NCBI RefSeq assembly: GCF_036401255.1
Contig: NZ_DASWVI010000147.1
Coordinates: 1 to 60,212, forward strand
DNA: 60,212 nt
DNA from: Nocardioides sp.
Lineage (GTDB): Bacteria > Actinomycetota > Actinomycetes > Propionibacteriales > Nocardioidaceae
Direction of reading: 5' to 3'
Positions 24,838-47,227 of the stretch are shown here, piece by piece; the stretch's first letter is position 1; every line of letters starts with the position of its first letter. Below the pieces are notes generated by a model. That model did not search any database. It had not been told where the DNA came from and saw only the letters and a list, made by a program, of their open reading frames with translations. A program made the position numbers and the translations under genes.

Positions 24838-26946
<2,109 letters not shown>

Positions 26947-27217
26947 GCGGCCTGTCTACCAGCCGGCTCCGACGGGCCCCCGAGACCGGCCGTCGAGATT
27001 GGCCGTCGAGATTGATGCCCGCGCGAGGTATCTGGCCCGGCCGGCTCCGCTCCTGGTCAGCGCCGGCGCGCGCAGGCACGGGGGCGTGTGCGCGCCGGCA
27101 CCCCGTAGCATGCGGCCATGCGTCCCTCGGCCCGCGCCGCGCACGTCGGTGTTGGAGCAGACGCCCGGCCAGGTCGTCTCGGTCGTCCAGGTCGTCCAGG
27201 TCGTCCAGGCGGTCGGC

Positions 27218-28198
27218 GTGGGTGAGGTCTTCGCACGCCGCTACGAGCTGCTCGATCCCATCGCCGACGGCGGCATGGGCTCGGTGTGGCTGGTCCGCGA
27301 CCTGACCGAGGGCGACGTCAAGGTGGCGAAGCTGCTGCGCCAGAGCGACGCGGGCTCGTTGTTGCGGTTCATGCGGGAGCAGTCGACCCGCATCCACCAC
27401 CCGCACGTCGTCACCCCGCTGTCCTGGGTGGGCGAGGACGACTCCGTGCTGTTCACGATGCCGCTGGTGCGCGGCGGCTCGGTGGCCGCGCTGATCGGGG
27501 ACTGGGGCGCGCTGCCCGAGCAGTGGACCGTGGAGATCGTGGCGCAGGCCCTGACCGCCCTGGACGCCGTGCACGGCGCCCGCGTGGTGCACCGGGACGT
27601 GAAGCCCGCGAACCTGCTGCTCGAGCCCACCGGGCCCGGGCGGCCGCACGTCCGGCTGTCCGACTTCGGCATCGCCGCGCCCCTCGACCAGCCTCGGATG
27701 ACCGTCGCCGCGACGGCGCTCGGCACGCCGGGCTACGTGGCGCCCGAGCAGCGCGCCGGCGGCGACCCCGATCCGCGTCAGGACCTCTACTCCGTCGGGA
27801 TCGTCGGCCTCGAGATGCTGCTGGGACATCCGCCGCCGTTCACCCTCGACGAGCTCCCGACGACGCCACTCGCGCGGTTCCTCGCCCGGGCGTCCGATCC
27901 GGACCCCGAGCGCCGACCCGACTCCGCCGCGACGATGCTCGCCGAGCTGCGCGCCGAGTGGCCCGAGCGGCCGTGGCCGGACGGCGAGATCGAGGTCCTC
28001 GACCAGTTCGCACCGCACGGGAACACGCCCCGGTCGGCGGAGCCCCGGCTCGAGCCACCGACGACCGTGCTGCCCCGCGAGGCGCCGGCCACGCCGCCGC
28101 ACCCGCGCCGGCAGCCGTCGATGGCCCCGATCGTGGCGCTCGGCATCGCCGGGGTGCTCCTGGTCCTCGCCGCCGTGGTGCTCCTCGTCGTCGGCTGA
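27218..28198 (+). CDS. Hanks-type Ser/Thr protein kinase with C-terminal TM helix
   Basis: GGMGSVW, VAK, HRDVKPANLL, DFGIA, GTPGYVAPE. Start placed at GTG of VGEVFARRYEL (uncertain). Confidence 0.88.
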   Translation: MGEVFARRYELLDPIADGGMGSVWLVRDLTEGDVKVAKLLRQSDAGSLLRFMREQSTRIHHPHVVTPLSWVGEDDSVLFTMPLVRGGSVAALIGDWGALPEQWTVEIVAQALTALDAVHGARVVHRDVKPANLLLEPTGPGRPHVRLSDFGIAAPLDQPRMTVAATALGTPGYVAPEQRAGGDPDPRQDLYSVGIVGLEMLLGHPPPFTLDELPTTPLARFLARASDPDPERRPDSAATMLAELRAEWPERPWPDGEIEVLDQFAPHGNTPRSAEPRLEPPTTVLPREAPATPPHPRRQPSMAPIVALGIAGVLLVLAAVVLLVVG

Positions 28199-28237
28199 TC
28201 ACGCGCGTCGCGGGGTCTCGCCGCGGACCGGCGGGGT

Positions 28238-28292
28238 GGGACCGGCGGTAGGACCCAGGGCCCAGGAGGACGGAGCCGCTCGCGCCTAGCGT
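28238..28292 (+). promoter_or_regulatory. Tad-type promoter, copy A
   Basis: GGGACC (28238), AGGACC (28250), GGGCCC (28258), 23-nt gap, TAGCGT (28287), ATG 7 nt later. Confidence 0.55.
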
Positions 28293-28299
28293 GCGCGGC

Positions 28300-28923
28300 A
28301 TGACCAGGCGCGCAACACGCTCTCTCGGCCTCGCCGTCGCGTTGATGGGGATCGGCGTCACCATGGCCGGCTGCGGCCACGAGACCGGCACCGCAGCCGA
28401 CGCCTCCAACACGGTGAGCACCGCCGACTACCTGATCACCTCCGAGGCGCTGCCGCGCGGCTGGGGCGACAGCAACTCCCAGGGCGTCGACTACCGGGTC
28501 AGCGTGTGCGGCGTCGACCTGGAGCCGACGCCACCGGTGCGCGCGACGAGCATCCGGTTCTCCGAGGGCCCACTCGGTCCGTTCCTCGAACAGCACGTCC
28601 GCGTCTACGACTCCGACGTCACGTCCGGGGTGATCGACCGGTTGCGGGAGGCGCTGCCCGGCTGCTCCGCCTACACGGTGACGGGCAGAGGGCCGGACAA
28701 GCCGACCGCGCGCTTCACCGTCGAGCCGCTCACGGTGGACGGTGCACCGGCCGACAGCGTGGCCTGGCGGCAGACTAGCCACGGCAGGCTCCCGGTCACC
28801 TCGGACTTCCTGCTGGTGCGCCGCGGCGACGCCGCGGTCATGCTGATGTCCTACGCCATCCGGCACGATCCCGACCCGCGGGTGCTCGAGCAGGCCGCCG
28901 CGGCCCTCCCCGAGGGGCAGTGA
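28300..28923 (+). CDS. lipoprotein with PknH-extracellular-like (sensor) fold
   Basis: Lipobox TMAGC; two further Cys; GPFLEQHVRVY...DRLREALPGC pattern. Fold call is by eye. Confidence 0.65.
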   Translation: MTRRATRSLGLAVALMGIGVTMAGCGHETGTAADASNTVSTADYLITSEALPRGWGDSNSQGVDYRVSVCGVDLEPTPPVRATSIRFSEGPLGPFLEQHVRVYDSDVTSGVIDRLREALPGCSAYTVTGRGPDKPTARFTVEPLTVDGAPADSVAWRQTSHGRLPVTSDFLLVRRGDAAVMLMSYAIRHDPDPRVLEQAAAALPEGQ

Positions 28924-28924
28924 G

Positions 28925-29986
28925 ATGGCGGCCGTCCGGCGTGACGAGCGCGGCGCGGGCACCGTCGAGTACGTCGGCGCGACGATCGCCGCCGCGATCC
29001 TGGCGCTCGGCGTCCTGGCCACCCCGGCGAGCGGCACGATCTCCAACGCCTTCGCCCAGGCGGTCTGCAGCGTCATCCAGCGCGACGGCTGCGGCGTCAC
29101 ACCGGGGTCCGGTGAGACGCCCCTGGAACAGGCCACGAGCGGTGACTACGTCGCGCTCGGCGACAGCTACTCCTCGGGCGAGGGTGCCTGGGACTACGAG
29201 GACGGAACGGACTTCGACGACCGCGACGACCTGTGGCCCTTCAACGACGACGAGGAGGACCACAACCGCTGCCACCGCTCCGAGAACGCGTACTCGCAGG
29301 TGGTGGCCTCCAGCAACGACTTCGCCGGCGACGTCACGTTCGTCGCCTGCTCGGGCGCCGTGATCACCGACCTCACCCACTCCAACCACGGCAACACCGG
29401 CGAGGACCCCCAGCTCGACGCCCTGGACGAGGATGTCTCGTTGGTGACGATGACGATGGGCGGCAACGACCTCGGCTTCGCCGACGTCGTCAAGGACTGC
29501 ATCATCAACGGCGCGCGCGGGGTGGGGTTCGTCGACAGCTGCCAGGAGAAGCACGACCAGCGCATCGAGGACCTGCTGCCGGAGCTGGAGCAGCGCCTGA
29601 TCGACCAGTACCGGGCGATCAAGGAGAAGGCGCCGAACGCGCGGGTCGTCATCATCGGCTACCCGCAGCTGTTCCCCGAGCACCCCGGCGACGACTACCA
29701 CGACCTGCTCTACAAGGAGGACCAGGTCTGGATGAACGAGAAGGCCGCCGAGCTCAACGCGATGCTGCGCGACGCCGCCCGGCAGGCCGGTGTCGAGTTC
29801 GTCGATCCCACCGACATCTTCCGCGGCCACGGCATCGGCAGCGACGACCCGTGGATCAACGACCTCGACTGGGGCGGGCCGGGACTGATGATCGTCGACC
29901 CGAGCAGCTTCCACCCCAACGCGGCCGGCCACGCGGCCATCGCCCAGCTGATCCAGCAGCAGCTCGAGCACCCCGTGTACCCCTGA
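28925..29986 (+). CDS. Flp-prepilin-fused SGNH/GDSL hydrolase
   Basis: RRDERG|AGTVEY + hydrophobic helix; SGNH blocks GDSYSSG, ACSGA, GGND, FHPN. Confidence 0.88.
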   Translation: MAAVRRDERGAGTVEYVGATIAAAILALGVLATPASGTISNAFAQAVCSVIQRDGCGVTPGSGETPLEQATSGDYVALGDSYSSGEGAWDYEDGTDFDDRDDLWPFNDDEEDHNRCHRSENAYSQVVASSNDFAGDVTFVACSGAVITDLTHSNHGNTGEDPQLDALDEDVSLVTMTMGGNDLGFADVVKDCIINGARGVGFVDSCQEKHDQRIEDLLPELEQRLIDQYRAIKEKAPNARVVIIGYPQLFPEHPGDDYHDLLYKEDQVWMNEKAAELNAMLRDAARQAGVEFVDPTDIFRGHGIGSDDPWINDLDWGGPGLMIVDPSSFHPNAAGHAAIAQLIQQQLEHPVYP

Positions 29987-30030
29987 GCCTGCCCGTGGTT
30001 AGGGTGGCGGCCGTCGACGAGGAGGACCCG

Positions 30031-30306
30031 GTGAGCGCAGGCACGGTACGGACGATGGCCGCGGTGTGCCTGCTCGGCTGTGGGGTCCTCGTGCTCCACG
30101 CGCTGATCCTCGGCATGCACGTCGAGGCGACGCCGCAGGCCCTTGAGGACGCCGACCGCGGGCGCGCTGTCGGCTACCCGGCGGCCGCGGGAGCGGTGGC
30201 GGCCCTCGTGGCGATGGCCGGCGCCGGGCGGCGCTGGGGCACCGGCGCACTCGCGGTCGGCCTGGTCCTCGGGCTCCTCGCCCTGGGCCTCGACGTCCGC
30301 GGCTGA
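30031..30306 (+). CDS. small three-TM membrane protein
   Basis: RBS GAGGAGG, GTG start, three hydrophobic segments. Confidence 0.65.
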   Translation: MSAGTVRTMAAVCLLGCGVLVLHALILGMHVEATPQALEDADRGRAVGYPAAAGAVAALVAMAGAGRRWGTGALAVGLVLGLLALGLDVRG

Positions 30307-30309
30307 TCC

Positions 30310-30345
30310 CCGTTGACCCGCCCGTAACTTTCGGCGGGTCAACGG
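30310..30345. terminator. hairpin between convergent genes
   Basis: 13-bp stem ccgttgacccgcc / ggcgggtcaacgg. Confidence 0.65.
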
Positions 30346-30350
30346 CGCGG

Positions 30351-30992
30351 TCAGCCGGCGGCCAGCACGACGAGGTACGCCGCCGCCAGCATCGCCGGGC
30401 CGAACGGGAACGTCGCCTTGCGGCCGGCTCCGGTGCGGACGGCCACCACGACCCCGACGAGGCCACCGAGCACGAACGCGAGGAAGAACGCCGCGAACGC
30501 CGCCGCCCAGCCGAACCAGCCGGTCAGCATGCCGAGCACCCCGGCGAGCTTGACGTCGCCCAGGCCGAGCCCGGCCGGGTTCAGCATGCTCAGCACCAGG
30601 TAGACGACCCCGCTCCCGACCGCACAGGCCAGCGCCGACCCCCACGATCCCCACTGGCCCTCGGCCCAGGCACAACCCGCGAGCAGCAGCAGCCCGGCAG
30701 GATAGGCGGGCAGCGTCCAGCGGTCCGGCAGCCGGCGTACGTCGAGGTCGATCGCGGCCAGCCCGGTCATCCACACCAGGGCGAGCGCGAAGGTCGCGAG
30801 CACCGCCGGCGCGTCGGCCAGGCGCCAGCCGAGCACCGCCTCGCCGACACCGAGCACCGGCACGACCCACCACACGCGCCGCGGCGGGAGGTGGACCTCG
30901 TCGTCGTAGCGGTACCGCCGGAGGGCGAGCCAGGCCCTCAGCAGCACACCGGCCGCCAGCCCACCCGCACCGAGGGCGGCTGCCACCACCAT
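30351..30992 (-). CDS. prepilin peptidase, A24 family (TadV-like)
   Basis: Catalytic Asp motifs AIDLDVRRLPD and GLGLGDVKLA; PFGPAM; multi-TM. Confidence 0.9.
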   Translation of the reverse strand: MVVAAALGAGGLAAGVLLRAWLALRRYRYDDEVHLPPRRVWWVVPVLGVGEAVLGWRLADAPAVLATFALALVWMTGLAAIDLDVRRLPDRWTLPAYPAGLLLLAGCAWAEGQWGSWGSALACAVGSGVVYLVLSMLNPAGLGLGDVKLAGVLGMLTGWFGWAAAFAAFFLAFVLGGLVGVVVAVRTGAGRKATFPFGPAMLAAAYLVVLAAG

Positions 30993-31354
30993 CAGGCCTC
31001 GCCGATCTCGAGAACGGAGCCGATCTCCACACCCCACATCGCCATCGACCCGGCCGCCGCCTCGATCGTCGCGCTCGCCCGGCGTCGCGGACGCGTCATG
31101 CCCAGCCACGGCCGGAGGGTCGCGACCAGGATCACCTCACCCGACCGGTCCACCACCGCGACGTCGATGGGATAGCGCATCCCGACCATGTGCACCGAGG
31201 GGCAGCGGGTGATCCACAACGCCCCCTCGACCGCCCGCGTGCCGAGCAGGCCCTTGCGTCTGGCCCGCCCCGTCGTCGCCACGGCGAGCGGTGCGACGGG
31301 CCGCCCGTCGCAGAGCAGCGTCCGGTCGCCCGGACCGAAGACCCGGCGGCTCAC
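30992..31354 (-). CDS. DUF192 family protein
   Basis: RRKGLLG...SVHMVGMRYPIDVAVVD...TIEAAAG; TGATG coupling to the peptidase; start approximate. Confidence 0.8.
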   Translation of the reverse strand: MSRRVFGPGDRTLLCDGRPVAPLAVATTGRARRKGLLGTRAVEGALWITRCPSVHMVGMRYPIDVAVVDRSGEVILVATLRPWLGMTRPRRRASATIEAAAGSMAMWGVEIGSVLEIGEA

Positions 31355-31432
31355 CGGAGGTTTGCCGACCTCGTCACGGTGGCAGGATCCGGGCGTTCTC
31401 GGATCGCACCGGGCCACGGAACAGGAGGCGGA

Positions 31433-31843
31433 ATGGATCGGCGTCGCGCCATCGGACTCGTGGCGGCACTCGTCCTGGGGCACTTCGCGGCCTGGATCGT
31501 GGCCGTGCTCGTGGGCCTCTCGTCGGACAGCGTGACCGCGACGGTGGTGCTCCGCACCCTGCTCGGCCTGGCCATGGTGGTCATGCTGACCCGCATCGTC
31601 ATGCGGGGAGCGTACGACGACGGCACGGTGGCCACGAGGCTCGTCGTGGCAGGGGTGGTGTCCTACCTGCTCTCCCCGGTCGCCTGGATCGGCCGGGCCC
31701 TGATCGCCCAGCTGCTGCTCGATCCCGGGCCGGCGACGTTCGCCGTGGACCTGCCGATCTGGGTGGTCGCGGTCGTGCTGGCGGGCCGCTCCGTCGGCCT
31801 GCGGGAGGCGCCGGCGCAGCGTCGGCCCTACCAGATGACGTGA
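31433..31843 (+). CDS. four-TM membrane protein
   Basis: RBS AGGAGG; MDRRRAIGLVAALVLGHFAAWIV... with four hydrophobic segments. Confidence 0.7.
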   Translation: MDRRRAIGLVAALVLGHFAAWIVAVLVGLSSDSVTATVVLRTLLGLAMVVMLTRIVMRGAYDDGTVATRLVVAGVVSYLLSPVAWIGRALIAQLLLDPGPATFAVDLPIWVVAVVLAGRSVGLREAPAQRRPYQMT

Positions 31844-31884
31844 CGCCCGGCCCGAGGTCGCGGTCGGAGGTGGCCCGGCGCCCT

Positions 31885-31939
31885 GGGCCCGTCGACGGGC
31901 CCGCGGACCTACGGTCACCGCCGGTCGCCGCGGGAGTCT
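31885..31939 (+). promoter_or_regulatory. Tad-type promoter, copy B
   Basis: GGGCCC (31885), GGGCCC (31897), GGACCT (31905), 23-nt gap, GAGTCT (31934). Confidence 0.45.
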
Positions 31940-31999
31940 GACAGCAGCGTGCACGCATGGGTGCCGGGACCGCCCGGCCCGACGGGAGAGGCAGAGGCC

Positions 32000-33385
32000 A
32001 TGCTCGGGGGACACGATCCAGCAAGACGGCGGGAGCGGGGGGCCGCGACCCTCGAGACGACCGGCGTGACGATCATCGCCGCGATGCTCGTGGTCGGACT
32101 GATCGTGTCCGCCACCCCGCAGGCGCGCATCATCGGGGAGACGTTCTCCTACTACGTCTGCCAGGTGGTGACGCTCGGACAGGGTGGTTGCACGCCGCCC
32201 TCCAGCTCGCCCGAGGCCCACAAGCCCACCGACCCGTGCGTGGTGACCCAGGACGGCGTCGAGCGCAACGCGAAGGTCTCGGTGCTGGTCGTCACCGCGT
32301 CCGACGGTCGACGCATCGAGATCCAGCGGCTCAGCAACGGCGAGTACCGCGTCACCGTGACCGACACCGGTGGCGCCGGTGCCGAGGTCGGGGTCGGAGG
32401 CGGGTTGACCGTGACGGTCGCCGACACCACCGTCGGCGGCAGCGCGACCGCCAACGCCGGTGCGTCCTTGGACATCAAGGACGGCGACGTCTACTACACC
32501 GACAAGGACGGCATCGACGACCTGATGAACGCCCTCCTCCAGGACCAGGTCAAGGACGCCACCGTCGGGGACAGCGGGCCCATTCGCTGGGTCACCGACC
32601 AGGCGACCGACCTGGTCGGCATCGGGCACGACCTCCCCGATCCCGACGAGACGTACGCCGAGGGCGGGGTCTCCCTCAACGCCAGCGCCCAGGCGACCGC
32701 ACTGACCGAGAGCGCCAACGCCGGCCTCTCGGAGTCGGCGCTGCTCGGTGTGCGACACAACCGCAACGGCTCGACGACGGTCTACCTCACCACGACGGTC
32801 TCGGGCGAGGCTGGCCTGCAGGGGCTGGGCATCGACACCGAGGGCAACCCCCAGTTCCAGGGCGCGAAGCTGGAGGGCAAGCTCCAGGTCGTCACCGCGG
32901 TCACCCTGGACGCCGAAGGCAACATGACCCAGGTGCAGGCCACCGCCAGTGCCGGCGGCACCTCCACCGGTCTCGCGACCGCCTTGTTCGGCGGCAGCGG
33001 TGACGCCGCCTGGACCAACCAGCAGTCCGGCCTCCACGTCTGGCAGGCGACGCTGCCGATCAAGGACTCCGCCGACCAGACGACGGCCAGTCAGTTCCTG
33101 CTCGCCCAGGGAGTCGGCTCGCTCGGGGCCTGGACCAACCCGCTGCTGGGGACCGCGGCGGCCATCGGCACCCAGAACTTCTTCGACGCCGTGCGCAACC
33201 ACGGCACGCTCACCCAACAGACCTACGACACCAACTCCAGCACCGTCTTCGGGGTCGATGCCGCCCTCGAGTTGGGTGTCGAGGTGGGGGTGTCCGGCAA
33301 CGTCAAGACCGACTCGATGACCACGACCGGCGCGCAATACTGGGACGGCAGCCAGTGGGTCGATTGGGAGGAGTGCGCCGCATGA
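32000..33385 (+). CDS. Flp/TadE-prepilin-fused large beta-rich protein of unknown function
   Basis: RRRERG|AATLE + hydrophobic helix, VCQVVTLGQGGC, Gly/Thr/Ala-rich alternating beta pattern, C-terminal WVDWEEC. Confidence 0.82.
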   Translation: MLGGHDPARRRERGAATLETTGVTIIAAMLVVGLIVSATPQARIIGETFSYYVCQVVTLGQGGCTPPSSSPEAHKPTDPCVVTQDGVERNAKVSVLVVTASDGRRIEIQRLSNGEYRVTVTDTGGAGAEVGVGGGLTVTVADTTVGGSATANAGASLDIKDGDVYYTDKDGIDDLMNALLQDQVKDATVGDSGPIRWVTDQATDLVGIGHDLPDPDETYAEGGVSLNASAQATALTESANAGLSESALLGVRHNRNGSTTVYLTTTVSGEAGLQGLGIDTEGNPQFQGAKLEGKLQVVTAVTLDAEGNMTQVQATASAGGTSTGLATALFGGSGDAAWTNQQSGLHVWQATLPIKDSADQTTASQFLLAQGVGSLGAWTNPLLGTAAAIGTQNFFDAVRNHGTLTQQTYDTNSSTVFGVDAALELGVEVGVSGNVKTDSMTTTGAQYWDGSQWVDWEECAA

Positions 33386-34017
33386 TCCGACGTCTGGCCG
33401 CCGTCTCGGGAGCCCTCACCCTCGCCCTCGCGCTCACGGCGTGCGGGGGCGACGGCGGGGACGAGCCGAAGACGGCCGACGACCCGTACCTGCCGACCGG
33501 GAGCCCGAGCGTGACGGTGACGATGACGAGCCCGCCCGCCGACTACTCGACGGTCAGCGGCGAGGGGTTCTCGATCAGCGCTCCCGGGGAGTTCCAGCAG
33601 CGCCGCCTCACCAGCGCCGACGGCGAGCCGATGCTCGTGCTCGAGAAGCCGTCGTCGATCGAGGCCATCCCCCAGCGCGTCGTGGTGATCCGCGACGTCG
33701 ACCCGCAGCAGTCGGCCGCCGAGCAGTCGTTCGCGCTGGAGTCGGTCAAGGCCGCGGGCGGACCGGCCGGGGACGCCGAGCGCTCCCAGGTCGACGTACC
33801 CGGAGACGCGGGCCCCGCCTTCCTCATCACCTGGAAGGAGGAGCGGCCGGCCGAGGGGGCCTCGACCGTCCAGGTCACCTACTGGCAGCTGATGGAGCAG
33901 GTCGGCAAGGACCTGATCATCAACGTCGTGGCGTTCGCGCCGACCTCCGAGTTCGAGACCTCCGAGGTGAGCAAGATCCTGCGCACGTTCGTCGCCGACG
34001 ACTCGCAGGTCGCATGA
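33382..34017 (+). CDS. lipoprotein (possibly PsbP/LpqN-like fold)
   Basis: Lipobox LALTAC; ATGA coupling; GFSISAPGEF...SKILRTF. Confidence 0.75.
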   Translation: MIRRLAAVSGALTLALALTACGGDGGDEPKTADDPYLPTGSPSVTVTMTSPPADYSTVSGEGFSISAPGEFQQRRLTSADGEPMLVLEKPSSIEAIPQRVVVIRDVDPQQSAAEQSFALESVKAAGGPAGDAERSQVDVPGDAGPAFLITWKEERPAEGASTVQVTYWQLMEQVGKDLIINVVAFAPTSEFETSEVSKILRTFVADDSQVA

Positions 34018-34586
34018 GGCTCAGCTCCGCACAGCGCCAGACCCTCCGGGCCGGCGCGGTCCTGCTGATGCTGTGTGGCGTGGGGCTCGCCGTCTTCGCC
34101 GCGCTCTACAGTCCGCAGTCGACCGGTTCCGGCGACCTGACGGTCGTGGACGACCCGACCTCGTTCAAGCTCCCCGACCCCGGTCTGTTCAGCGGTGAGG
34201 TGATCGTCTACGGCCACGGCACCGGCGAGCAGAGTCCCCAGGACCTCGGCTGCCGGTTGCTCGGACGCTCCGGTGACGAGCAGAGCAGCGCGAAGATGAG
34301 CGAGCTCGCCGTCCTCACGCTCGACCCGGTCACCGTCGACGGCCAGCGCCTGGAGCCGCTCTTCGCGGTGCGCTCCTATCCGCAGGGCGCGACGATCAGC
34401 TGCTCCCAGGGCCAGGCGGCGGCGCCGATCGCGATCACCGACGAGTCGACCTTCGGCCGGCTGGGCACGTTGGTCCGGGTGTTCGCCGGCGGGCTCGCAC
34501 TGGTGTGCGTCGTGGTCGGCGTGACGGTCTGGTTCGCGTTCCGGCCCCCACGTCGCGACCTACCCCGGCAGGCCTTCCCGTCCTGA
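34014..34586 (+). CDS. two-TM membrane protein with two-Cys extracytoplasmic domain
   Basis: ATGA coupling; TM, VIVYG..DLGC..VDG..ATISCS, TM. Confidence 0.7.
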   Translation: MRLSSAQRQTLRAGAVLLMLCGVGLAVFAALYSPQSTGSGDLTVVDDPTSFKLPDPGLFSGEVIVYGHGTGEQSPQDLGCRLLGRSGDEQSSAKMSELAVLTLDPVTVDGQRLEPLFAVRSYPQGATISCSQGQAAAPIAITDESTFGRLGTLVRVFAGGLALVCVVVGVTVWFAFRPPRRDLPRQAFPS

Positions 34587-34601
34587 CCGGTGCACCGCAC
34601 G

Positions 34602-34642
34602 GACATGACGCCCTCCCGGGGTCCCCGGGAGGGCGTCGTGTC
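34602..34642. terminator. hairpin between convergent genes
   Basis: gacatgacgccctcccgggg-t-ccccgggagggcgtcgtgtc. Confidence 0.7.
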
Positions 34643-34669
34643 GGTGCGGCCACCGCTCACTCGATGAGC

Positions 34670-35362
34670 TCAGTCGACCAGGCGGGGCTCCAGGCCGTGG
34701 ACGTCGACGTCGACGAGCGACAGCAGGCCGCTCTCGCCGCCGATGACGAAGTGGGCCACGATCGGTCCGCAGGTCAGCGTGGTCCCGATGTCCGGCGGCG
34801 GAGGCGGCGGCGTCGGGCTCGGCGGCGGCCCGCTCGGATCGTCGTCGGGGGGCTCGGTGGGCGTGGGCGTGGGCGTCGGGCTGGGGCTCGGTGGCGGGTC
34901 GTCCTGCCAGGAGCAGGAGCCGACGTCGAAACCGGTGCTGGCCACGGCGTCTGCGACCGCGGGGCCAACGTCGTCGGAGACGGGCTCGTTCATCTCCACG
35001 GATGCCTCGACCCGGTTGTGAGCGAGGTCGAAGCAGTACGACGTCAGCGAGGCGTCGTTCTTGCCCGCGTAGGTGCTGGCCTGGCTCTGGCCCAGGCCGC
35101 AACCGACCAGGCCCTCGAAGCCGCCCTTCGAGTGCAGCATCCCCAAGATCGCCGGCAGCTCGTCGGCCAGCGCACCCGCTCCGGCGAGCGCAGCGGCGTC
35201 GGCGGCGCTCTGCGCCTGCGACTTCTCGTCGGTGCCGTGACCGAGCGCGGCCACCCCCCACAGCGCGAGCGCGATCAGGAAGGTGGACGCCATGATGATG
35301 ATCGGCGTCGCGATCTGGCCGCGCTCGTCTCGGCGCCGATCACGTGCGTGCGACCGGTTCAT
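34670..35362 (-). CDS. TadG-related pseudopilin
   Basis: RRDERG|QI + hydrophobic helix; AQSAADAAALAGA Tad motif; Pro/Thr linker. Confidence 0.85.
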   Translation of the reverse strand: MNRSHARDRRRDERGQIATPIIIMASTFLIALALWGVAALGHGTDEKSQAQSAADAAALAGAGALADELPAILGMLHSKGGFEGLVGCGLGQSQASTYAGKNDASLTSYCFDLAHNRVEASVEMNEPVSDDVGPAVADAVASTGFDVGSCSWQDDPPPSPSPTPTPTPTEPPDDDPSGPPPSPTPPPPPPDIGTTLTCGPIVAHFVIGGESGLLSLVDVDVHGLEPRLVD

Positions 35363-35406
35363 CGACGAACTCCCCCTGGTGGTCTGGCGACTGGTGGACG
35401 TGGCGA

Positions 35407-35435
35407 ACGCGGGCCCCGGAGTCCGGGGCCCGCGT
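35407..35435 (-). terminator. hairpin downstream of the major pilin gene
   Basis: acgcgggccccgga-g-tccggggcccgcgt. Confidence 0.65.
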
Positions 35436-35457
35436 CAGCGGCGGTGCGGAGCGGAGG

Positions 35458-35670
35458 TCACCCGCCGGTCACGCTGTTCACGGCGGTGGTGAAGACGCCG
35501 CCGAGGTCGATGGCGTCGGCGGCCTGCAGCACCGCGAGGGCGATGCCGGCGGCGACGATGATCATGCCGACGTACTCCAGGGTGCCCTGGCCCTTCTCGT
35601 CGTCGCGGGCCTCGAGCAGGTGGGCCTGGAGCATCAGGTAGGTCATGATGAGCTTCTGCATCTGGATCAT
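35458..35670 (-). CDS. flp: Flp family type IVc major pilin
   Basis: 70 aa; DDEKG|QGTLEY + hydrophobic helix; RBS GAAAGAGG. Confidence 0.88.
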   Translation of the reverse strand: MIQMQKLIMTYLMLQAHLLEARDDEKGQGTLEYVGMIIVAAGIALAVLQAADAIDLGGVFTTAVNSVTGG

Positions 35671-35756
35671 CCTCTTTCACTGTCTCGGCCACGTCCCCCG
35701 TACGGGCCGTAAGCCTGTGTCCTGGATCTGGGTCGCCGTCCCTGACGACACTGTGA

Positions 35757-35847
35757 AATCTAGGTGCGATCGGCCGCCGCGCCGGGGGCCCAGGGGCCCA
35801 TCGTTGGGCCCACTGCCGGGCCCGCCGCTGGGCCTCCTGGTGGGCCC
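35757..35847 (-). promoter_or_regulatory. flp promoter with phased GGGCCC array
   Basis: Hexamers at 35842, 35830, 35818, 35806, 35794 (12-bp period) and 35786; 23-nt gap; TAGATT -10 box at 35762-35757. Confidence 0.7.
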
Positions 35848-35851
35848 AGAC

Positions 35852-36547: not shown

Positions 36548-37715
36548 AGCTCGCCTCCTTCAGGCCCATGAGCGGCGCGACCAGGCGGACGCTCGTCCCG
36601 CGGCCGGACGCGGTCTCGATCTCGGCTCGCCCACCGACCTGGGCCAGGCGCTCGGTGTATCCGCGGACCCCGAAGTGGCCCTCGCGCTCCCGTTCGGGCA
36701 GCACCTCGAGGGAGAACCCGCATCCGTCGTCGGCGATCTCGACGAGCAGGTCGTCGCCATCGCTGCACATCCGGACCGAGAGCCGGTCGGCGCCCGAGTG
36801 CGCCAGCGCGTTGAGGATCGCCTCGCGGGCGGCGGCGAGCAGCTCGTAGCGCACCGACGGCGCCGAGACCGACACCTCCTCGAGGTCGAGCCGCAGGCGT
36901 ACGTCGCGTCCGTGGGTGCAGTCGCGGGCGAGCGCGGCGAGGGACTCGTGGAAGGGCTGGTCGAGGTGGTCTTGCCGCAGGGTCGAGAGCAGCTCTCGGA
37001 GGCGCGCCACCGCGTCGGCCGAGGCCCGGGCGATGTCACCGGCCTCAGCGGCCGCGCGCTGGGGGTCGCGCTGGATCCAGTGCTCCAGGGACTGCGCGGT
37101 CAACGTCAGTCCCTGCAGGGTCTTGGCCGTGGAGTCGTGCAGCTCGCGGGCGAGCCGGGCGCGCTCGGCCGCCGCCGCGGCACCGGACACGAGGTCGGCG
37201 AAGGCACGTTCGGACTGACGCTTGCGTGTCGCGAGCAGCCGGAACACCTGGCCGAGCACGACGACCGACACGAAGGTGATCGGGAAGCCGAAGGCCACGA
37301 GGAAGGAGGAGTCGATCTCGCGGTCGAGCAGGCTCGCGGTCAGATAGCCGCCGACCATCGCGACCGTCGACAGCGCGGCCGGCAGCGGTGGCAGCACGAC
37401 ACCGGTGACGACACAGCTGCTCAGCGCGACCAGGACCAGCGGGTTGTCGGTGCCGAGCGCCACCATCAGCGCGGTCATCACCAGCCCGTCGACCATCACC
37501 AGCAGGGGGTGTCGCTGCAGGAAGTCGGGCACGGAGGGCAGCGAGATGCCGGCCATGCTGCTGAGGGTCAGGAACGCGATGGCCACGATGGCGACGGGCG
37601 AGAGCGTCCTCTCCACGAAGCCGGCGAGGCTGGCCAGCAGCGTCATCATCCGCATCAGGAACGCGACCCGGATCAGGGTCCGGACCTCCATCACGTCGGT
37701 TGCGTCGTCACTCAT
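36540..37715 (-). CDS. membrane sensor histidine kinase (HisKA_3)
   Basis: N-terminal TM helices; ERARLARELHDS; EAILNALAHS, DDGCGF, GHFGVRG. Confidence 0.92.
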   Translation of the reverse strand: MSDDATDVMEVRTLIRVAFLMRMMTLLASLAGFVERTLSPVAIVAIAFLTLSSMAGISLPSVPDFLQRHPLLVMVDGLVMTALMVALGTDNPLVLVALSSCVVTGVVLPPLPAALSTVAMVGGYLTASLLDREIDSSFLVAFGFPITFVSVVVLGQVFRLLATRKRQSERAFADLVSGAAAAAERARLARELHDSTAKTLQGLTLTAQSLEHWIQRDPQRAAAEAGDIARASADAVARLRELLSTLRQDHLDQPFHESLAALARDCTHGRDVRLRLDLEEVSVSAPSVRYELLAAAREAILNALAHSGADRLSVRMCSDGDDLLVEIADDGCGFSLEVLPEREREGHFGVRGYTERLAQVGGRAEIETASGRGTSVRLVAPLMGLKEASYV

Positions 37716-38623
37716 CCCGAGAACCCCCCGAACAGGTTGCCGAAGTCCAGACCCGAGCCCAAGACGATGCCGACGATGAGGATGATCAGCACCGCAGGCA
37801 CCAGCACGATCGTCGTCACGAGCGTGACCCGCGGGGCGACCCGCGCGGCCTTGCGGCGCATCCGTTGGGCGTGCTCGCGGCGCTGGTCGATCGCGATCTG
37901 GTTGAGGGCGTCGACCAGTGGTGCGCCGAGCTCGTCGGACTGCAAGAACGCGGTGACGAACTGGCTCAGCGCCTCGGAGTCGCTGCGCTCGCGCAGCTGC
38001 TCGAACGCCGCCCGCAGCGAGGCGCCGTGCTGGACCTGCCCGAGCGCGTGCTGCATCTCGGCCGCCAGCGGGCCACCGAAGCGCTCTGAGACCCGCATCA
38101 GTGCCGGGCGGAACCCGACGCCGGCGGTGACGGTGACGGCGAGCACGTCGAGGAAGTCGGGCAGGTCGCGGTCGAGGGCCTCGGTGCGCAGGCGGCGCAG
38201 GCGAGAGAGCCGGGAGAGCGGGAACACCACGGGCGCCACCAGGCACAGCACGAGGCCCAAGACGTTGGCCGAGGCGAGGCAGATCAGCGTGGCGGGAGCC
38301 AGGAGGATGACCCAGAGCATGACCCCGCGGATCACGCCGTCGACGCTCAACCCGTCGGGGCGTCCGGCGTAGGCCACCTGGGCCTGCAGCCACTCGACGG
38401 CGCGGTGGGGCAGCCGGCGCCGCACGCGCGGAGCCAGTCGCGTCGCGAGTCGGCCCAACGGCCCCTCGCCGCGTGCCGCGCGACGCTGCTCGGGCCGCAG
38501 CACCATGAGCTCCTCGAGCCCCAGGCCCTCCGCGGCGTCCGCCCGCAGCAGCCGGTAGCCGTGCAGGGCCAGGAGCAGCGCCCCGGCCACGGCCACACCC
38601 GGCAGGTAGATCGTGAGGTTCAT
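37712..38623 (-). CDS. tadC: Tad platform protein TadC (T2SS F family)
   Basis: LDRDLPDFLDVLAVTVTAGVGFRPAL...ELGAPLVDAL; ATGA coupling. Confidence 0.88.
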   Translation of the reverse strand: MNLTIYLPGVAVAGALLLALHGYRLLRADAAEGLGLEELMVLRPEQRRAARGEGPLGRLATRLAPRVRRRLPHRAVEWLQAQVAYAGRPDGLSVDGVIRGVMLWVILLAPATLICLASANVLGLVLCLVAPVVFPLSRLSRLRRLRTEALDRDLPDFLDVLAVTVTAGVGFRPALMRVSERFGGPLAAEMQHALGQVQHGASLRAAFEQLRERSDSEALSQFVTAFLQSDELGAPLVDALNQIAIDQRREHAQRMRRKAARVAPRVTLVTTIVLVPAVLIILIVGIVLGSGLDFGNLFGGFSG

Positions 38624-39540
38624 ATGTCGAACCTCGTCATCTTGCGGATCAGGTAGTAGCCGAGCACGAACAACGAGCCGGCGATGACCAGAGAGATCTG
38701 CCCGACGATCTGCCCGGTCATCGCCTCGACCGACCCGGGCTGGATGGTGTTGAGCATGAACAGCATGCCGACGCCGAGCAGGATGACGAGGTAGCCGGTG
38801 GCCAGGGCCTGGGCGAGCGTGGTCCGGATCTCGCGGCGGGTCTCCTTGCGGGCCTCGAGCGTGTCCGCGATGTCGCGCAGCGAGGTCACCAGCGAGCCGC
38901 CGCTGCGGGAGCAGACCACCAGCGTCGACAGGAGCACCCCGACCTCGCGGGAGGGCAGCCGACTCCCCATGTCGTCGAGCGCGGTCTCCAGATCGGTGCC
39001 GAACCGCAGCGCGTCGGCCACGTGTCGCAGCTCGGTTCCGGCCGGCGCGGCCAGCTCCTCGCCCGCGATCCCGATGGCGGTCGAGATCGACAGGCCCGCG
39101 TTGGTCGCGTTGGCCAGCACGCGGGCGACCTCGGGCATCTGGACGATGAACGCCTCGAGCCGGCGCGCCTTGGCGCGACGGATGTAGGCACGCAGGGCGA
39201 ACCCGCCGATGCTCACGCCCAGGATGCCGAACACCGGCGCCAGGGCGGTCCACAGCAGGTAGGCGGCCAGGAGGCTGACGCCGCTCGCGACCAGGACGAC
39301 GCTGAGCGCACGCTGACGGATGCCGGCCAGGACCAGCTCGCGCTCGACGGCCACGCCGAGCCGAGTACGCCGGAAGCTGCGGTTGAGGCGGTCGAGCAGG
39401 GGCTGGTCCTCGGCCTGGTCGTAGCCGGCGACGGCCGCCGCGATGCGGCGCCGCTCCGTGGCGACCGATGACAGCGACCGCAGGCCGAGCAGACCGAACA
39501 GGACGGCGGCGACCGAGCACAGCAGTGCCGTCACGACCAT
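38620..39540 (-). CDS. tadB: Tad platform protein TadB (T2SS F family)
   Basis: QMPEVARVLANATNAGLS...SGGSLVTSLRDIADTL. Confidence 0.88.
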   Translation of the reverse strand: MVVTALLCSVAAVLFGLLGLRSLSSVATERRRIAAAVAGYDQAEDQPLLDRLNRSFRRTRLGVAVERELVLAGIRQRALSVVLVASGVSLLAAYLLWTALAPVFGILGVSIGGFALRAYIRRAKARRLEAFIVQMPEVARVLANATNAGLSISTAIGIAGEELAAPAGTELRHVADALRFGTDLETALDDMGSRLPSREVGVLLSTLVVCSRSGGSLVTSLRDIADTLEARKETRREIRTTLAQALATGYLVILLGVGMLFMLNTIQPGSVEAMTGQIVGQISLVIAGSLFVLGYYLIRKMTRFDI

Positions 39541-40910
39541 GAGACGCCACCCCCACTGTCCAGACCGGTCAGGCCGTCGGCGGCGTGGAAGCCCGCCGGC
39601 AGCTGCTCGGACCGCTCCTGGAGCCGGGCCACGAGGCGCGGGTGCACGGGGTGGCGGACGAACGCACCGCGCGCGCCTGCCTCTCCGGGCGCGTGCGGGT
39701 CCCAGTGGACGATCCGGCTCAGCTCGAAGTCCTCCCGGCGCCGCGAGGAGAGATAGCTGACCTCGACGACGCGGCGGGTGCCGTCGGCGGACCGCACGAG
39801 CTGCACGACCAGGTCGATCGAGGAGTTCACCTGCTCGCGCAGGGCATGGAAGGGGATCTCCACGTCGGACATCGCCGCCATGGTCTCCATCCGCGACAGG
39901 GCGTCATCGGTGGTGTTGGCGTGCACGGTCGTGAGCGAGCCCTCATGGCCGGTGTTCATCGCCTGGAGCATGTCGAGCGCCTCGCCGCCGCGACACTCGC
40001 CGACGACGATCCGGTCGGGACGCATGCGCAGCGCGTTGCGCACCAGGTCGCGGATGGTCACCTCACCGCGACCCTCGACATTGGCCGGCCGGGTCTCGAG
40101 CTGGACCACGTGCTCCTGCTCCAGCGAGAGCTCGGCCGCGTCCTCGATCGTGACGATGCGCTCCCGGCCCGGGATGAAGGCCGACAGGGCGTTGAGCATC
40201 GTCGTCTTGCCCGAGGCGGTCCCGCCCGAGACGACGATGTTGAGCCGCGCCCGGACCGCGGCCTCGAGTAGCTGGGCGGTCGCCGAGTCGACGGCGCTGC
40301 GCTGGATCAGCTCGTCCATGCCGTAGCGCCGAGGGAACAGCCGGATCGTGACCGTCGGGCCGCGCAGCGCCAACGGCGGGAGCACGACGTTGACGCGTGC
40401 ACCGCGCGGCAGCCGAGAGTCGGGAGGCAGCCGGGCGTCGACCATCGGGCTGGACTCGTCCACGCGGCGGTTCACGGTCGAGACCACCCGGTCGATCGTC
40501 TGCAGCAGCTGCTCGTTGCTGGTGAAGCCCGACGGGATCCGCTCGAGCACGCCGTAGCGCTCGACGTACACGGTGTCGTGCCCGTTGATCATGATCTCGC
40601 TGACCGCCGGGTCGGCGAGGATCGGCTCGAGCACACCGAGACCGACGGCCTCGTCGACCACCCGGCGGACCAGGCTGGTGCGCTCCCGGGTGCTGAGGAT
40701 GATGCCCTCGCGCGAGACCAGGTGGTTGAGCACCCGCTCCAGGCGGGTACGCCGCTGCGCCTCGTCGAGGCGCCCGACCTCGGTCAGGTCGACCTCGTCG
40801 AGCAGCAGGCGCTTGAGGCGCCGCACCAGCAGCTCATCGGAGCTCTCGCTGGCGCCGAGCTCGACGCCGTTGCCCGCGACGCCGGCGAAACCCCGGTAGC
40901 CGCCGCTCAC
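39531..40910 (-). CDS. tadA: Tad assembly ATPase TadA/CpaF
   Basis: [49 protein letters not shown]. Confidence 0.95.
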
Positions 40911-41242
40911 GGCGCCACCGCCATCGCGACCTCGCGCTCGACCGTGAACGCCGGCAGGGGGGCGACCCGCGGCACCTCGACCACGAGCTTCACCGAGTCA
41001 CCCGACACGTCGACGCGGGACACGTGGAGCCCCGCCGGCAGGGCGTCCTCCGCCGCGGCGACGGGGTCGCGTCCGAGGCTCTGGGCGCGCGCGGACTGTC
41101 GTGCCGCCTCCTGGGTCTGCGAAGCGGCCCACCCCGCGACGCCCACCTGGAGGGTGTAGAGCGCGACGAGCACGAGCAGCGGCACCAACGCGACCACCTC
41201 GATGGCGACCGTGCCACGCTCATCACGACGACGGCTGCTCAT
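40907..41242 (-). CDS. TadE-like pseudopilin
   Basis: MSSRRRDERG|TVAIEVVALVP...EAARQSARA. Confidence 0.85.
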   Translation of the reverse strand: MSSRRRDERGTVAIEVVALVPLLVLVALYTLQVGVAGWAASQTQEAARQSARAQSLGRDPVAAAEDALPAGLHVSRVDVSGDSVKLVVEVPRVAPLPAFTVEREVAMAVAP

Positions 41243-42795
41243 GGCTCCTCCACCACCTGCGAGGTCTGGGAGATGTGGCCGGGCAGCTCGGCGCACCCGG
41301 GACAGAGGGCGGGAATGTCCATCGTCACCTTGACCGTCCCGTCGCCGAGCACGCTGACGTGCACCTGGTCCTGGATCGATGCCGGAACGGCGTCGCGGGC
41401 CGCGGCCGCGGGGTCCTCCCCGATCGCCTGGGCTCGCGCCGCGGCGTTGGCGGCATGCCCGTTCCACACGAAGGCCAACGCGGTCAGGCCCACCTGCCAG
41501 GCCAGCAGCACGACGAGGATCACGAGCGGCACGAGGACGACGGTCTCCACCGCGACCTGACCCGTCTCGACGGCGGCGCGACGTGCGCCCCCGCGGCGCC
41601 GTGCCGGAGCGCGGGTCGGCGGCTCCGCGACCGCGACGCCGCTCACCCCGATCTCGGCACCGATCCGCTCCAGGGCCGACCACCAGGCGGCCTCGCGGAC
41701 CTCGCCCGGGTCGCGGGAGTTCACGGCGCGCTCGAGGCGGCGGAAGGTCGCGGGCAGCCGGGTCGAGACGACCTTCGCCGAGGTCAACCGGGCCAGGGCG
41801 TCGGGGTTGAGGACGTCCTCGCGCGAGACCCGGTTGACCAGGACGTTCAGGTCCTGCTCGGCGCTGACGCCCAAGCTCTCCCACGCCTGCACGGTGCGCC
41901 GGAACGACCGCATCGCCAGCACGTCCGGCGTCACGACCGTCACGACCGTGTCCGCCACCTCGACGGCCGCGGCCTGCGCCGGCGTGGCGTGGGAGCCTCC
42001 GTCGACGATGATCACGTCGAACTCCTGGCGCAGCAGGCCGAGGATCGCACGCACGGCGGCAGGGGTGACGTACTCGGTCTCGGCGACCTGCATCGGCGTG
42101 AGCAGCAGGGAGATGCCCGACTCGTGCTGGACCAGCGCGTCCAGGATCGTCGCGGGCGAGAGGTCCTCGGCGACCTTCGCGACGTCGGCGATCGAGACCC
42201 GCTGTCGGGCCTCGAGGATGCTCGAGACGTCACCGGCCTGCAGGTCGAGGTCGACCAGGCAGACCCGCAGACCGGAGACCTTCCGGCGCAGGTCGAGCGC
42301 CATGTGAGTGGCGATCGTGGTCGTCCCCACGCCACCCTTCGCGCCGGCGAACACCGTCACCCGCCCGTGCCGACCGAGCGCCTGGGTGGTGTCGGCGACC
42401 GTGCCGGACAGCAGTCCCCCCATGCGCTCGGACCACTCCCGGGCCGCCTCGTAGCGTCCGAGCAGGTCGTCGAAGGAGATGGGGTAGGAGACGACGCCCT
42501 TGGCGCCGGCCTCCATCGCCTTCAGCGCGCCCTCGACGTCGCCGGAGGAGTTGAGGACGACCACCCCGCTGGCCGGGGAGCGGAACACGATCTCGCGCAC
42601 GACCTCCGGCGCGCTCTGCGGGCCGAGCCGGTCGTGGACGACCACGACGTCCGGCCGGAGCCGGCCCACGGCGGCCGACAGCTCCCCGGTCGACTGCTCG
42701 TAGGTCACCACCTCGGCGCCGTCGATCTCGGCCAACAGGCTGCGGATCTCGCTCTGGACACCCTGGTCGGCCGCGCCGACCACCACCTTGGTCAC
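41239..42795 (-). CDS. TadZ/CpaE (receiver-like + MinD/ParA ATPase) fused to a C-terminal TadE pseudopilin
   Basis: GAKGGVGTTT, LVDLDLQAGD; then RRRGGARRAAVETG|QVAVETVVLVPLVILVVLLAWQV...AANAAARA in the same frame. Confidence 0.85.
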   Translation of the reverse strand: MTKVVVGAADQGVQSEIRSLLAEIDGAEVVTYEQSTGELSAAVGRLRPDVVVVHDRLGPQSAPEVVREIVFRSPASGVVVLNSSGDVEGALKAMEAGAKGVVSYPISFDDLLGRYEAAREWSERMGGLLSGTVADTTQALGRHGRVTVFAGAKGGVGTTTIATHMALDLRRKVSGLRVCLVDLDLQAGDVSSILEARQRVSIADVAKVAEDLSPATILDALVQHESGISLLLTPMQVAETEYVTPAAVRAILGLLRQEFDVIIVDGGSHATPAQAAAVEVADTVVTVVTPDVLAMRSFRRTVQAWESLGVSAEQDLNVLVNRVSREDVLNPDALARLTSAKVVSTRLPATFRRLERAVNSRDPGEVREAAWWSALERIGAEIGVSGVAVAEPPTRAPARRRGGARRAAVETGQVAVETVVLVPLVILVVLLAWQVGLTALAFVWNGHAANAAARAQAIGEDPAAAARDAVPASIQDQVHVSVLGDGTVKVTMDIPALCPGCAELPGHISQTSQVVEEP

Positions 42796-43523
42796 TGTGC
42801 CTCCTCCGGGATCGCCTTGCCGCCGAGGTCGCTCGCGTCGAACTCGTCGACCTCGCGCGACCGGTTGGTGCCCACGTCGCCGGGCAGGGCGACGAGCCGG
42901 ACCTCCTGGGCGAACGCCGCCGCATAGGTCACCGACAGCGCGTCCTCGGGCTCCAGCGCGAGCGTCACCGGGACGACGTCCTTGGTGTTGGCCACGCTGC
43001 CCTCGTCGTCGACCGTGATGGTCTGCTGACCGCCGATCGAGACGATGCGGACGTCGCGCACGAGGACCCGGGCCTGCTTGGGCAGACCCGGCACATCGGC
43101 GAACACCGCGACGATGTCGACCCGGTCGCCCGGGCGGACCCGGCCGGCGACCCCGGTCACGCTGTTGACGTTGATCGCGATCTCACGCTCGGTGGGGCTG
43201 AGGTCCGTCGAAGGGATCAGCATGTCGGAGGTCACCACGGTGCCGGTGGCGAGGGGGAACGACACCCGCCGCCCCTCGAGCTCACGCAGGCTGGTGACCG
43301 CGGTCCGTGCCGCCCAGCGCCGAGGCACCTCGATCGCGTGCAGGTTGGAGGCGCCCAGAGGGCTGTAGGCGTCGACGGGCTTCGCCACCTCGTAGACGGT
43401 GATCCGTGGGCCGACCTGACTGTCGACGTCCTTGACGTAGTTGCTCACTGCGAAGAAGACGGCGAGCGACAAGGCCGCGGCGGCGAGAAGGAACAAGACG
43501 CCGCGACGCTGGCGGGGGTTCAC
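42792..43523 (-). CDS. cpaB: Flp pilus assembly protein CpaB/RcpC
   Basis: N-terminal TM, SAF-like domain, GVAGRVRPGDRVDIVA, VTLALEPEDA. Confidence 0.88.
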   Translation of the reverse strand: MNPRQRRGVLFLLAAAALSLAVFFAVSNYVKDVDSQVGPRITVYEVAKPVDAYSPLGASNLHAIEVPRRWAARTAVTSLRELEGRRVSFPLATGTVVTSDMLIPSTDLSPTEREIAINVNSVTGVAGRVRPGDRVDIVAVFADVPGLPKQARVLVRDVRIVSIGGQQTITVDDEGSVANTKDVVPVTLALEPEDALSVTYAAAFAQEVRLVALPGDVGTNRSREVDEFDASDLGGKAIPEEAQ

Positions 43524-47146: not shown

Positions 47147-47192
47147 GTTCACGACCTTTCCGTCCGGACCCGATCGCCAAACACCGTAGGTA

Positions 47193-47227
47193 TTCGCAAT
47201 AGCGAACGTCAAGGTTGCTTGTGCGAA
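47193..47227. promoter_or_regulatory. palindromic operator pair in a divergent promoter
   Basis: TTCGCAATAGCGAA (47193-47206) and degenerate GTTGCTTGTGCGAA (47214-47227), 21 bp apart. Confidence 0.55.

Follow-up and report, generated by a model that had tools for sequence, protein, structure and literature searches.

What purpose does an enzyme serve when it is built onto the end of a pilin? The question is raised by a gene of the soil actinobacterium Nocardioides sp. at 28925..29986 on the plus strand of contig NZ_DASWVI010000147.1 (assembly GCF_036401255.1), of which we analysed 60,212 nucleotides, hereafter the window. The gene encodes an Flp-type prepilin segment joined to a hydrolase domain of the SGNH family; it follows the gene of a lipoprotein and stands near a Tad pilus cluster. 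In our judgement the fusion is probably a membrane-attacking effector and the lipoprotein its immunity protein, within a polymorphic toxin system linked to the Tad pilus. The pilin-lipase fusion is real and conserved, and it leads to a widespread family of pilin-tagged effectors in actinomycetes. Its parts are listed here.

28925..29986, plus strand: pilin-SGNH fusion gene, 353 amino acids (from the open reading frame, Pfam, homologues, alignment and structural model)
28925..28954, plus strand: prepilin leader (residues 1-10) with the invariant Gly-1 as its last residue; cleavage predicted after 28954 (from alignment and the class III signal-peptide rule)
28955..29092, plus strand: Flp-type pilin module with Glu+5 and Tyr+6, a hydrophobic helix, a second helix and the Cys48-Cys56 pair
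29111..29983, plus strand: SGNH hydrolase domain with Ser81 (29165-29167), Gly144 (29354-29356), Asn181 (29465-29467), Ser328 and His330 (29912-29914)
29195..29263, plus strand: acidic insert after block I, with 12 Asp/Glu in 23 residues (residues 91-113)

The reading frame translates into 353 codons without internal stops, and its base use is coding-like and typical of high GC, with a GC content of 0.97 at third codon positions. An opposite-strand open reading frame (ORF) of 377 amino acids that covers the gene was rejected, as it fails the coding-base filter while the plus-strand frame passes it and has homologues. The N-terminus has a short, charged leader followed by Gly10, Glu+5, Tyr+6 and a hydrophobic helix, and the class III signal-peptide rule is the basis for placing the prepilin cleavage after Gly-1. 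The initial annotation held that this leader resembles that of the major pilin, which proved correct: the fusion reads DERG/AGTVEYVG against DEKG/QGTLEYVG in the 70-residue pilin encoded at 35458-35670 (slash, predicted cleavage). When a profile of the fusion N-terminus was run against the 49,557 six-frame ORFs of its own genome, three matches were strong: besides the fusion itself these were a second fusion at 32000-33385 (E 4e-11) and the major pilin (E 3e-12). The fourth-best match falls to E 2. Pfam assigns only DUF4244 to the pilin part, below its cut-off. The Cys48-Cys56 pair is common to most cargo-bearing pilins, whereas the major pilin lacks it.

The hydrolase occupies residues 63-353 and matches Lipase_GDSL_2 (PF13472) at E 5.7e-23, with 82.7 bits against a cut-off of 32.9. 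Blocks I, II, III and V, described as intact in the initial annotation, are indeed so: they lie at S81, G144, N181 and H330, all invariant in 45 sequences. Two residues before the histidine stands a serine, and there is no Asp three before it, either here or in any of 121 proteins compared, which agrees with the proposed assignment to the Streptomyces dyad type. The best solved relative by sequence is 4HYQ, a phospholipase A1 of Streptomyces albidoflavus (E 1.8e-27), along with 5MAL, a lipase of S. rimosus. The structural model of the fusion has a predicted local distance difference test (pLDDT) value of 83.8, and its closest Foldseek matches are again 4HYQ (E 7.9e-19, template modelling score 0.89 over the target) and 5MAL; the predicted fold is the three-layer alpha/beta/alpha arrangement of SGNH enzymes. 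By sequence and predicted structure the protein is thus an SGNH/GDSL-2 hydrolase of the Streptomyces Ser-His dyad subgroup with all of its catalytic residues present. Enzymes of this subgroup work with a Ser-His dyad and a helper serine two residues before the histidine (PMC10779480, in part). In fold, blocks, the non-acidic residue three before the histidine and the serine two before it, the fusion is like 4HYQ, 5MAL (SrL) and 1ESC (S. scabies SsEst). It differs from these Streptomyces hydrolases in that a prepilin N-terminus replaces the ordinary signal peptide, in an acidic insert that adds about 18 residues and a very acidic domain (58 Asp/Glu vs. 17 Lys/Arg), and in its lipoprotein neighbor. 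The acidic insert that had been reported after block I is present and fills a gap in the alignment to 4HYQ and 5MAL. By analogy with the closest solved relatives the domain may be a phospholipase, although an identity to 4HYQ of 33% leaves its substrate unfixed.

A protein search found 5,436 matches among 7,996 scored candidates, and the best 120 of these share 48-96% identity with the fusion, mostly along its full length. Gly10, Cys48, Cys56, Ser81, Gly144, Asn181 and His330 are invariant in the 45 aligned members, and E15 and Y16 are at least 90% conserved. Since the best 120 homologs are mostly full length and the key residues do not vary, the fusion is no accident of assembly. Among 121 proteins, the prepilin pattern is found in 87 in its strict form and in 117 in a permissive form, and the block V pattern x-[SG/E]-S-F-H-P in 120. 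Named carriers among the matches listed are Nocardioides, Microlunatus, Janibacter, Knoellia, Ornithinibacter and Angustibacter. The spread is patchy: only 5 of 201 sampled genomes of the family, the unpublished G031 (source of locus L084) among them, carry the fusion at E 1e-40 or better. NCBIfam assigns no family to the fusion. In Streptomyces and Actinoplanes, a related SGNH domain also forms the C-terminal end of long open frames, about 1,300-1,800 codons in length (L046, L055, L060, L062-L064, L067, L068, L070, L071, L076 and L078).

We then considered what the fusion might require as a partner. The initial annotation had offered the products of two flanking genes.

28300..28923, plus strand: PknH-like lipoprotein, 207 amino acids, lipobox Cys25; predicted immunity or binding partner
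30031..30306, plus strand: 91-residue membrane protein downstream of the fusion, not kept beside most homologs

Of these candidates only the upstream lipoprotein held up. Its stop lies one base ahead of the fusion's ATG, and a homologous gene adjoins the fusion in all ten distinct pilin-SGNH loci (the window, L001, L002, L003, L005, L006, L007, L084, L116 and L121), upstream in five and downstream in five. The ten lipoproteins share 20-60% identity with that of the window, and the lipobox Cys and a Cys-Gly-Val-x-x-Glu motif are invariant among them. A lipoprotein profile found no match in any of the 74 other SGNH loci fetched. In the 201 family genomes, with 15 candidates scored per genome, the five strong matches are those of the five fusion genomes, each adjacent to its fusion, and ten weaker matches (E 9.8e-18 or weaker) adjoin unrelated genes. 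This ranking counts for less than it seems to, as the profiles were built from the paired lipoproteins and their top rank is partly circular; the informative part is the absence elsewhere. The product of the gene at 30031 was set aside: by tblastn against the fetched loci it had no match outside its own genome, and a similarly placed small membrane ORF occurs in L001 alone.

The lipoprotein appears to resemble PknH_C. The window's protein does not itself match PF14032 (PknH_C), but its 59%-identical homolog in L001 does (32.5 bits against a cut-off of 27), and a cluster of look-alikes in the ESM Atlas at 0.91 to the lipoprotein consists of PknH_C proteins to 89%. NCBIfam assigns it no family. 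Prediction of a complex between the SGNH domain and the lipoprotein scored 0.56, against 0.01 for the best control, with at least 69% of contacts agreeing between runs and a partner pLDDT of at least 84. Of 157 solved pairs, 116 attained the mark for a complex, as did 2 of 215 mismatched ones; 18 of these solved pairs and both mismatches did so with scores of 0.60 or below. This lends weak support to binding of the lipase domain by the adjacent lipoprotein, and we predict that the lipoprotein would inhibit the lipase and so protect the producer. A Spearman coefficient of 0.57 between the pairwise identities of lipases and lipoproteins (210 comparisons, 21 pairs) does not speak for co-evolution, since the pairs are related to one another.

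A further argument for a toxin comes from what else the same pilin module carries. Its profile matched 93 of 401 genomes of the class, and a broader profile 75 of 401 genomes of the phylum, plain pilins counted in both; it also matched 852 cluster representatives, and many of the matches open long ORFs. We scanned 131 pilin-module proteins with Pfam, made up of 76 (49 of 70 long fusions from fetched regions and 27 of 150 listed representatives, chosen by length) and 55 out of 57 further fusions. Above the cut-offs, the toxin cargos included Tox-REase-5 (7), pretoxin HINT (19), toxin deaminase (2) and one each of CdiA RNase A, Ntox24, colicin D and the colicin E3-type Cytotoxic domain. ADP-ribosyltransferases (4), PI3/4-kinases (3), calpain-type peptidases (7), NlpC/P60, thermolysin, class 2 lipase and alpha/beta hydrolase domains were found as well. 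Among 70 neighboring genes scanned (65 of 88 listed neighbors and five genes of the window), Imm52 was found behind three REase-5 fusions (in one case above the cut-off) and a SUKH protein behind a deaminase fusion; a scan of 18 further fusion neighbors identified no immunity family. One pilin module thus precedes many unrelated C-terminal toxin domains, which is the conserved trafficking domain expected of polymorphic toxin systems. Adjacent immunity genes accompany some nuclease and deaminase cargos, and the lipase has an adjacent, weakly predicted binder. Because related actinomycetes load many toxin domains onto the same module, the fusion is likely one weapon of such a system.

The nature of the neighbor also appears to follow the cargo. 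A lipoprotein gene lies beside 10 of 10 GDSL and 6 of 7 calpain fusions (16 of 17 together) and beside none of 27 fusions with cargos that act in the cytoplasm (REase-5, 0 of 5; HINT, 0 of 15, leaving out one more that had no room beside it; ADP-ribosyltransferase or kinase, 0 of 7). Such a pattern is what toxin-immunity pairs predict, because the protector sits at the enzyme's site of action. The rule breaks down, however, with NlpC/P60, where 2 of 5 fusions have such a neighbor, and with other enzymes that act outside, where 1 of 4 does, and the compartments were assigned by us to loci that are related and not independent, which weakens the case and makes this a pattern and not a test.

Several further observations concern the carrier. 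Matches to the module number 46 in the genome of locus L013 (G957), 11 and 7 in two others and none in two more. In G957, loci L170-L202 hold ADP-ribosyltransferase, PI3/4-kinase, HINT, calpain, thermolysin, lipase and many nameless cargos, and its kinase cargos hint at eukaryotic targets. A membrane protein of about 120 residues precedes many fusions with nuclease, HINT or nameless cargos (L123, L125, L126, L153; L133, L136, L137, L143-L145), encoded by a gene of its own or read in frame with the pilin motif that comes after it, and is possibly a loading chaperone. A fusion of the pilin with an NlpC/P60 peptidoglycan hydrolase recurs in L134, L138, L139, L151 and L153, in several of them inside the Tad cluster, and may serve not as a toxin but to give the pilus a passage through the wall of the producer itself.

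Many module fusions lie in or beside Tad clusters, as does that of the window. There the Tad set (A24, TadG, Flp, TadB/C, CpaF, CpaE and CpaB) falls inside 14 kb near the fusion: the minus strand carries a complete cluster, from prepilin peptidase to CpaB, and the plus strand two cassettes beside it. The first consists of the lipoprotein, the lipase fusion and the small membrane protein, and the second of a membrane protein, a beta-rich fusion, a lipoprotein and a membrane protein.

30351..30992, minus strand: A24 prepilin peptidase, one of three in the genome
31433..31843, plus strand: 136-residue membrane protein ahead of the second fusion, with homologs in L001, L116 and L120
32000..33385, plus strand: second pilin fusion, 461 amino acids, with a beta-rich cargo of about 400 residues of a nameless family
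33382..34017, plus strand: second lipoprotein, whose gene overlaps that of the second fusion at its stop
34670..35362, minus strand: TadG-like minor pilin (PF13400, E 3.6e-8)
35458..35670, minus strand: major Flp-type pilin, 70 amino acids
35852..37715, minus strand: response regulator and likely histidine kinase (the kinase read from sequence), inside the Tad cluster
37712..43523, minus strand: Tad core, comprising TadC, TadB, the CpaF ATPase, TadE, a CpaE-TadE fusion and CpaB

The idea of an enzyme-bearing minor pilin, put forward in the initial annotation, is therefore borne out as far as sequence, conservation, predicted structure and a Tad cluster with its prepilin peptidase can carry it. 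From these elements we propose the following mechanism. On insertion of the fusion, the enzyme domain would come to lie outside the cytoplasmic membrane, and, judging by the motif and the neighboring peptidase, the A24 enzyme would cut after Gly10. As a minor subunit the pilin helix would then join the Tad filament, probably at its tip, and the Cys48-Cys56 loop would form a platform for the cargo. On contact with a neighboring cell the Ser81-His330 dyad would hydrolyze acyl esters of membrane or envelope lipids, while the co-encoded lipoprotein, located in the same outer compartment, would shield the producer and its siblings. The module itself is a swappable carrier, which in other actinomycetes bears nucleases, deaminases, ADP-ribosyltransferases, kinases and peptidases.

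A number of observations weigh against an effector with its immunity protein. The closest characterized enzymes are ordinary secreted hydrolases. The score of the predicted complex lies in the weak range, comes without an interface and is silent on whether the active site is blocked. The pair is well conserved, with mean identities of 74% and 67% over 21 pairs, above those of many toxin-immunity pairs, and each of its loci contains one copy of the lipoprotein, where many toxin loci typically hold arrays of divergent immunity genes; no orphan array of that kind was seen in the lipase-fusion loci. Most of the remaining cargos of the module have no Pfam match. Finally, 23 Streptosporangiales proteins (L004, L008-L029) keep the helix, block I and mostly the Cys pair and have lost the prepilin motif. 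They form a clade with a support of 97, which a quick tree puts beside or inside the pilin forms with a support of 86, and the loss of the motif is a single evolutionary event. No paired lipoprotein lies near the members of this clade and none of five whole genomes searched has a strong match to it, so that an anchored SGNH protein is apparently viable without the partner. Two readings suit the clade: domestication of a weapon, leaving an anchored lipase, or a partner meant for pilus loading and not for protection; in appearance these relatives resemble a domesticated form.

Much of this would suit a Tad-displayed lipase for nutrition or surface remodeling, one that frees fatty acids from waxes, polyesters or dead cells and whose lipoprotein is a folding chaperone or loading adaptor. 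The nearest solved relatives are secreted Streptomyces hydrolases, the pair is conserved and not fast-diverging, the partner-free anchored clade is as expected if the partner is needed just for pilus loading, the second fusion has a lipoprotein of its own, and predicted binding suits a chaperone as well as an inhibitor. We nevertheless regard this explanation as rather unlikely, since this very module is also joined to established toxin domains that have cognate immunity genes. The partners are also cargo-specific, the lipase partner not being found beside other cargos, and they track the target compartment, whereas a general loading adaptor would be expected with every cargo; the patchy distribution (5 of 201 family genomes) points the same way. 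The pilin segment might instead be only a device for export or anchoring, so that the processed enzyme stays in the membrane or is shed, off the filament. A head of 290 residues on a pilin of 46 would presumably suit only the end of a filament, several fusion loci lie away from Tad genes, and the Streptosporangiales clade kept the anchor after losing the cleavage motif. Glu+5 is required for assembly of pilin filaments, however, and it is nearly invariant across cargos, as Gly-1 is strictly; many fusions lie inside Tad clusters, and CpaF homologs with 52-73% identity are present in all five genomes checked among the fusion sources. An anchor alone is accordingly improbable. It seems highly improbable that the lipoprotein is the detached sensor of a Ser/Thr kinase and that the lipase has no dedicated partner. 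PknH_C is by its Pfam description the outer domain of a mycobacterial Ser/Thr kinase, and a kinase precedes the lipoprotein in the window (about 27218-28198) and in L001 and lies one gene further up in L116. Yet a close kinase homolog (>50% identity) is near the pair in only three of ten loci, all of a single genus, while the lipoprotein adjoins the fusion in all ten, switching sides, and is predicted to bind the lipase domain; the sensor was rejected as fitting just those three loci. The window's kinase gene, on the plus strand, stops just past its membrane helix, and only in this genus does such a kinase immediately precede the PknH-like lipoprotein.

An effector paired with its immunity protein might belong to something larger. 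We tentatively suggest, as an idea that may well prove wrong, that Tad pili are a contact-dependent weapon of actinomycetes in which the pilins themselves are the toxins. An Flp module of about 50 residues would load the filament with lipases, peptidases, nucleases, deaminases and ADP-ribosyltransferases, every cargo would have an immunity partner of its own in the matching compartment, HINT domains would free the cytoplasmic toxins and the conserved beta-rich product of 32000-33385 would open the way into the target. The lipase and lipoprotein of the window would be a simple member of this weapon. The family of the second fusion is present at many actinomycete Tad loci, often in multiple copies and often with its own lipoprotein behind it. 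Its model (predicted template modeling score 0.76) shows long beta-hairpins, and a wide structural search showed a weak likeness to barrels of porins and autotransporters with Z up to 8.4 (148 residues aligned, root-mean-square deviation 4.3), a value that the tool rates as possibly reflecting an arrangement in common. Foldseek returned nothing for the model apart from low-probability, meaningless matches, NCBIfam assigned the protein no family, and its look-alikes in the ESM Atlas are unnamed actinobacterial clusters throughout. The protein is a candidate for either a core component or a pore-forming cargo; that it might form an entry pore into the target cell is speculation.

One of the closest known systems is Kil of Myxococcus, where killing that depends on the Tad pilus is known; its interchangeable minor-pilin tips are reported in predatory myxobacteria only and together with a needleless type III secretion system (PMC12075869, in part). 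Both have a Tad pilus in which several minor pilins are large and vary in their heads, with contact-dependent killing as the proposed output, and the part of PMC12075869 consulted leaves the toxic activity of the tips unidentified. The actinomycete fusions are set apart from Kil, as described, by recognizable enzyme or toxin domains joined covalently to the Flp helix and by cargo-specific neighbors. Polymorphic toxin systems share with the pilin fusions Tox-REase-5, HINT, deaminase and RNase domains, the Imm52 and SUKH proteins and several paralogs per genome, and differ in that the trafficking domain is here an Flp prepilin of about 50 residues. Term searches of the available text found no "pilin", "pilus" or "Flp" in two papers on polymorphic toxins (PMC3482391, in its first 300,000 of 357,715 characters, and bioRxiv 10.1101/2021.10.19.465003) and no "pilin", "pilus" or "Tad" in that on umbrella toxins (PMC11062931). 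A single sentence in the available part of PMC12605009 lists Flp pilins among the fusion partners of ARC (CD38-like) toxin domains; the pilin module, its link to Tad, its range of cargos and their partners are not analyzed in that part. Beyond this one-line mention the literature covered, largely without subscription papers and wholly without supplements, does not describe a pilin-tagged toxin system, and a pilus-based one is apparently undescribed so far.

Lipases are familiar as antibacterial weapons. The Tle effectors of type VI secretion systems are lipases with cognate immunity proteins. The type VII secretion effector TslA is likewise an antibacterial lipase with a cognate immunity protein, and Tad genes lie beside some type VII loci, in Bacillota only (both from part of PMC11217815). 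The fusion resembles TslA and Tle in having a lipase cargo that would hit membranes from outside and an adjacent partner predicted to protect. It differs in its delivery domain, in placing an SGNH fold on a pilin and in the PknH-like lipoprotein as partner.

If our interpretation is correct, filamentous and soil actinomycetes possess a new route for contact-dependent toxins, and their widespread but poorly understood Tad pili gain a concrete job. Type IV filaments would then be seen to bear covalently attached enzymes as payload, an immunity role could be assigned to a PknH-like lipoprotein family, and the result would touch the question, raised by Myxococcus predation, of whether the Tad tip is itself toxic. 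Because most cargos have no Pfam match, the pilin tag also offers an easy handle for finding new families of antibacterial enzymes.

Some features of the Tad loci stand apart from these questions. Scans for promoters and terminators over 26900-36000 found none, a result that is uninformative at 73% GC. Just past the Tad core, at 45233-47212 on the minus strand, is a gene for a secreted protein with a von Willebrand A domain, a candidate adhesin. The CpaE of the window (41239-42795, minus strand) has a TadE-like pilin fused to its C-terminus, as in four of five other genomes checked, whereas the Streptomyces loci encode CpaE and TadE as separate genes. In L117 (7495-9051) the gene for the major Flp pilin is present in three identical copies within one Tad locus, amid four beta-rich pilin fusions.
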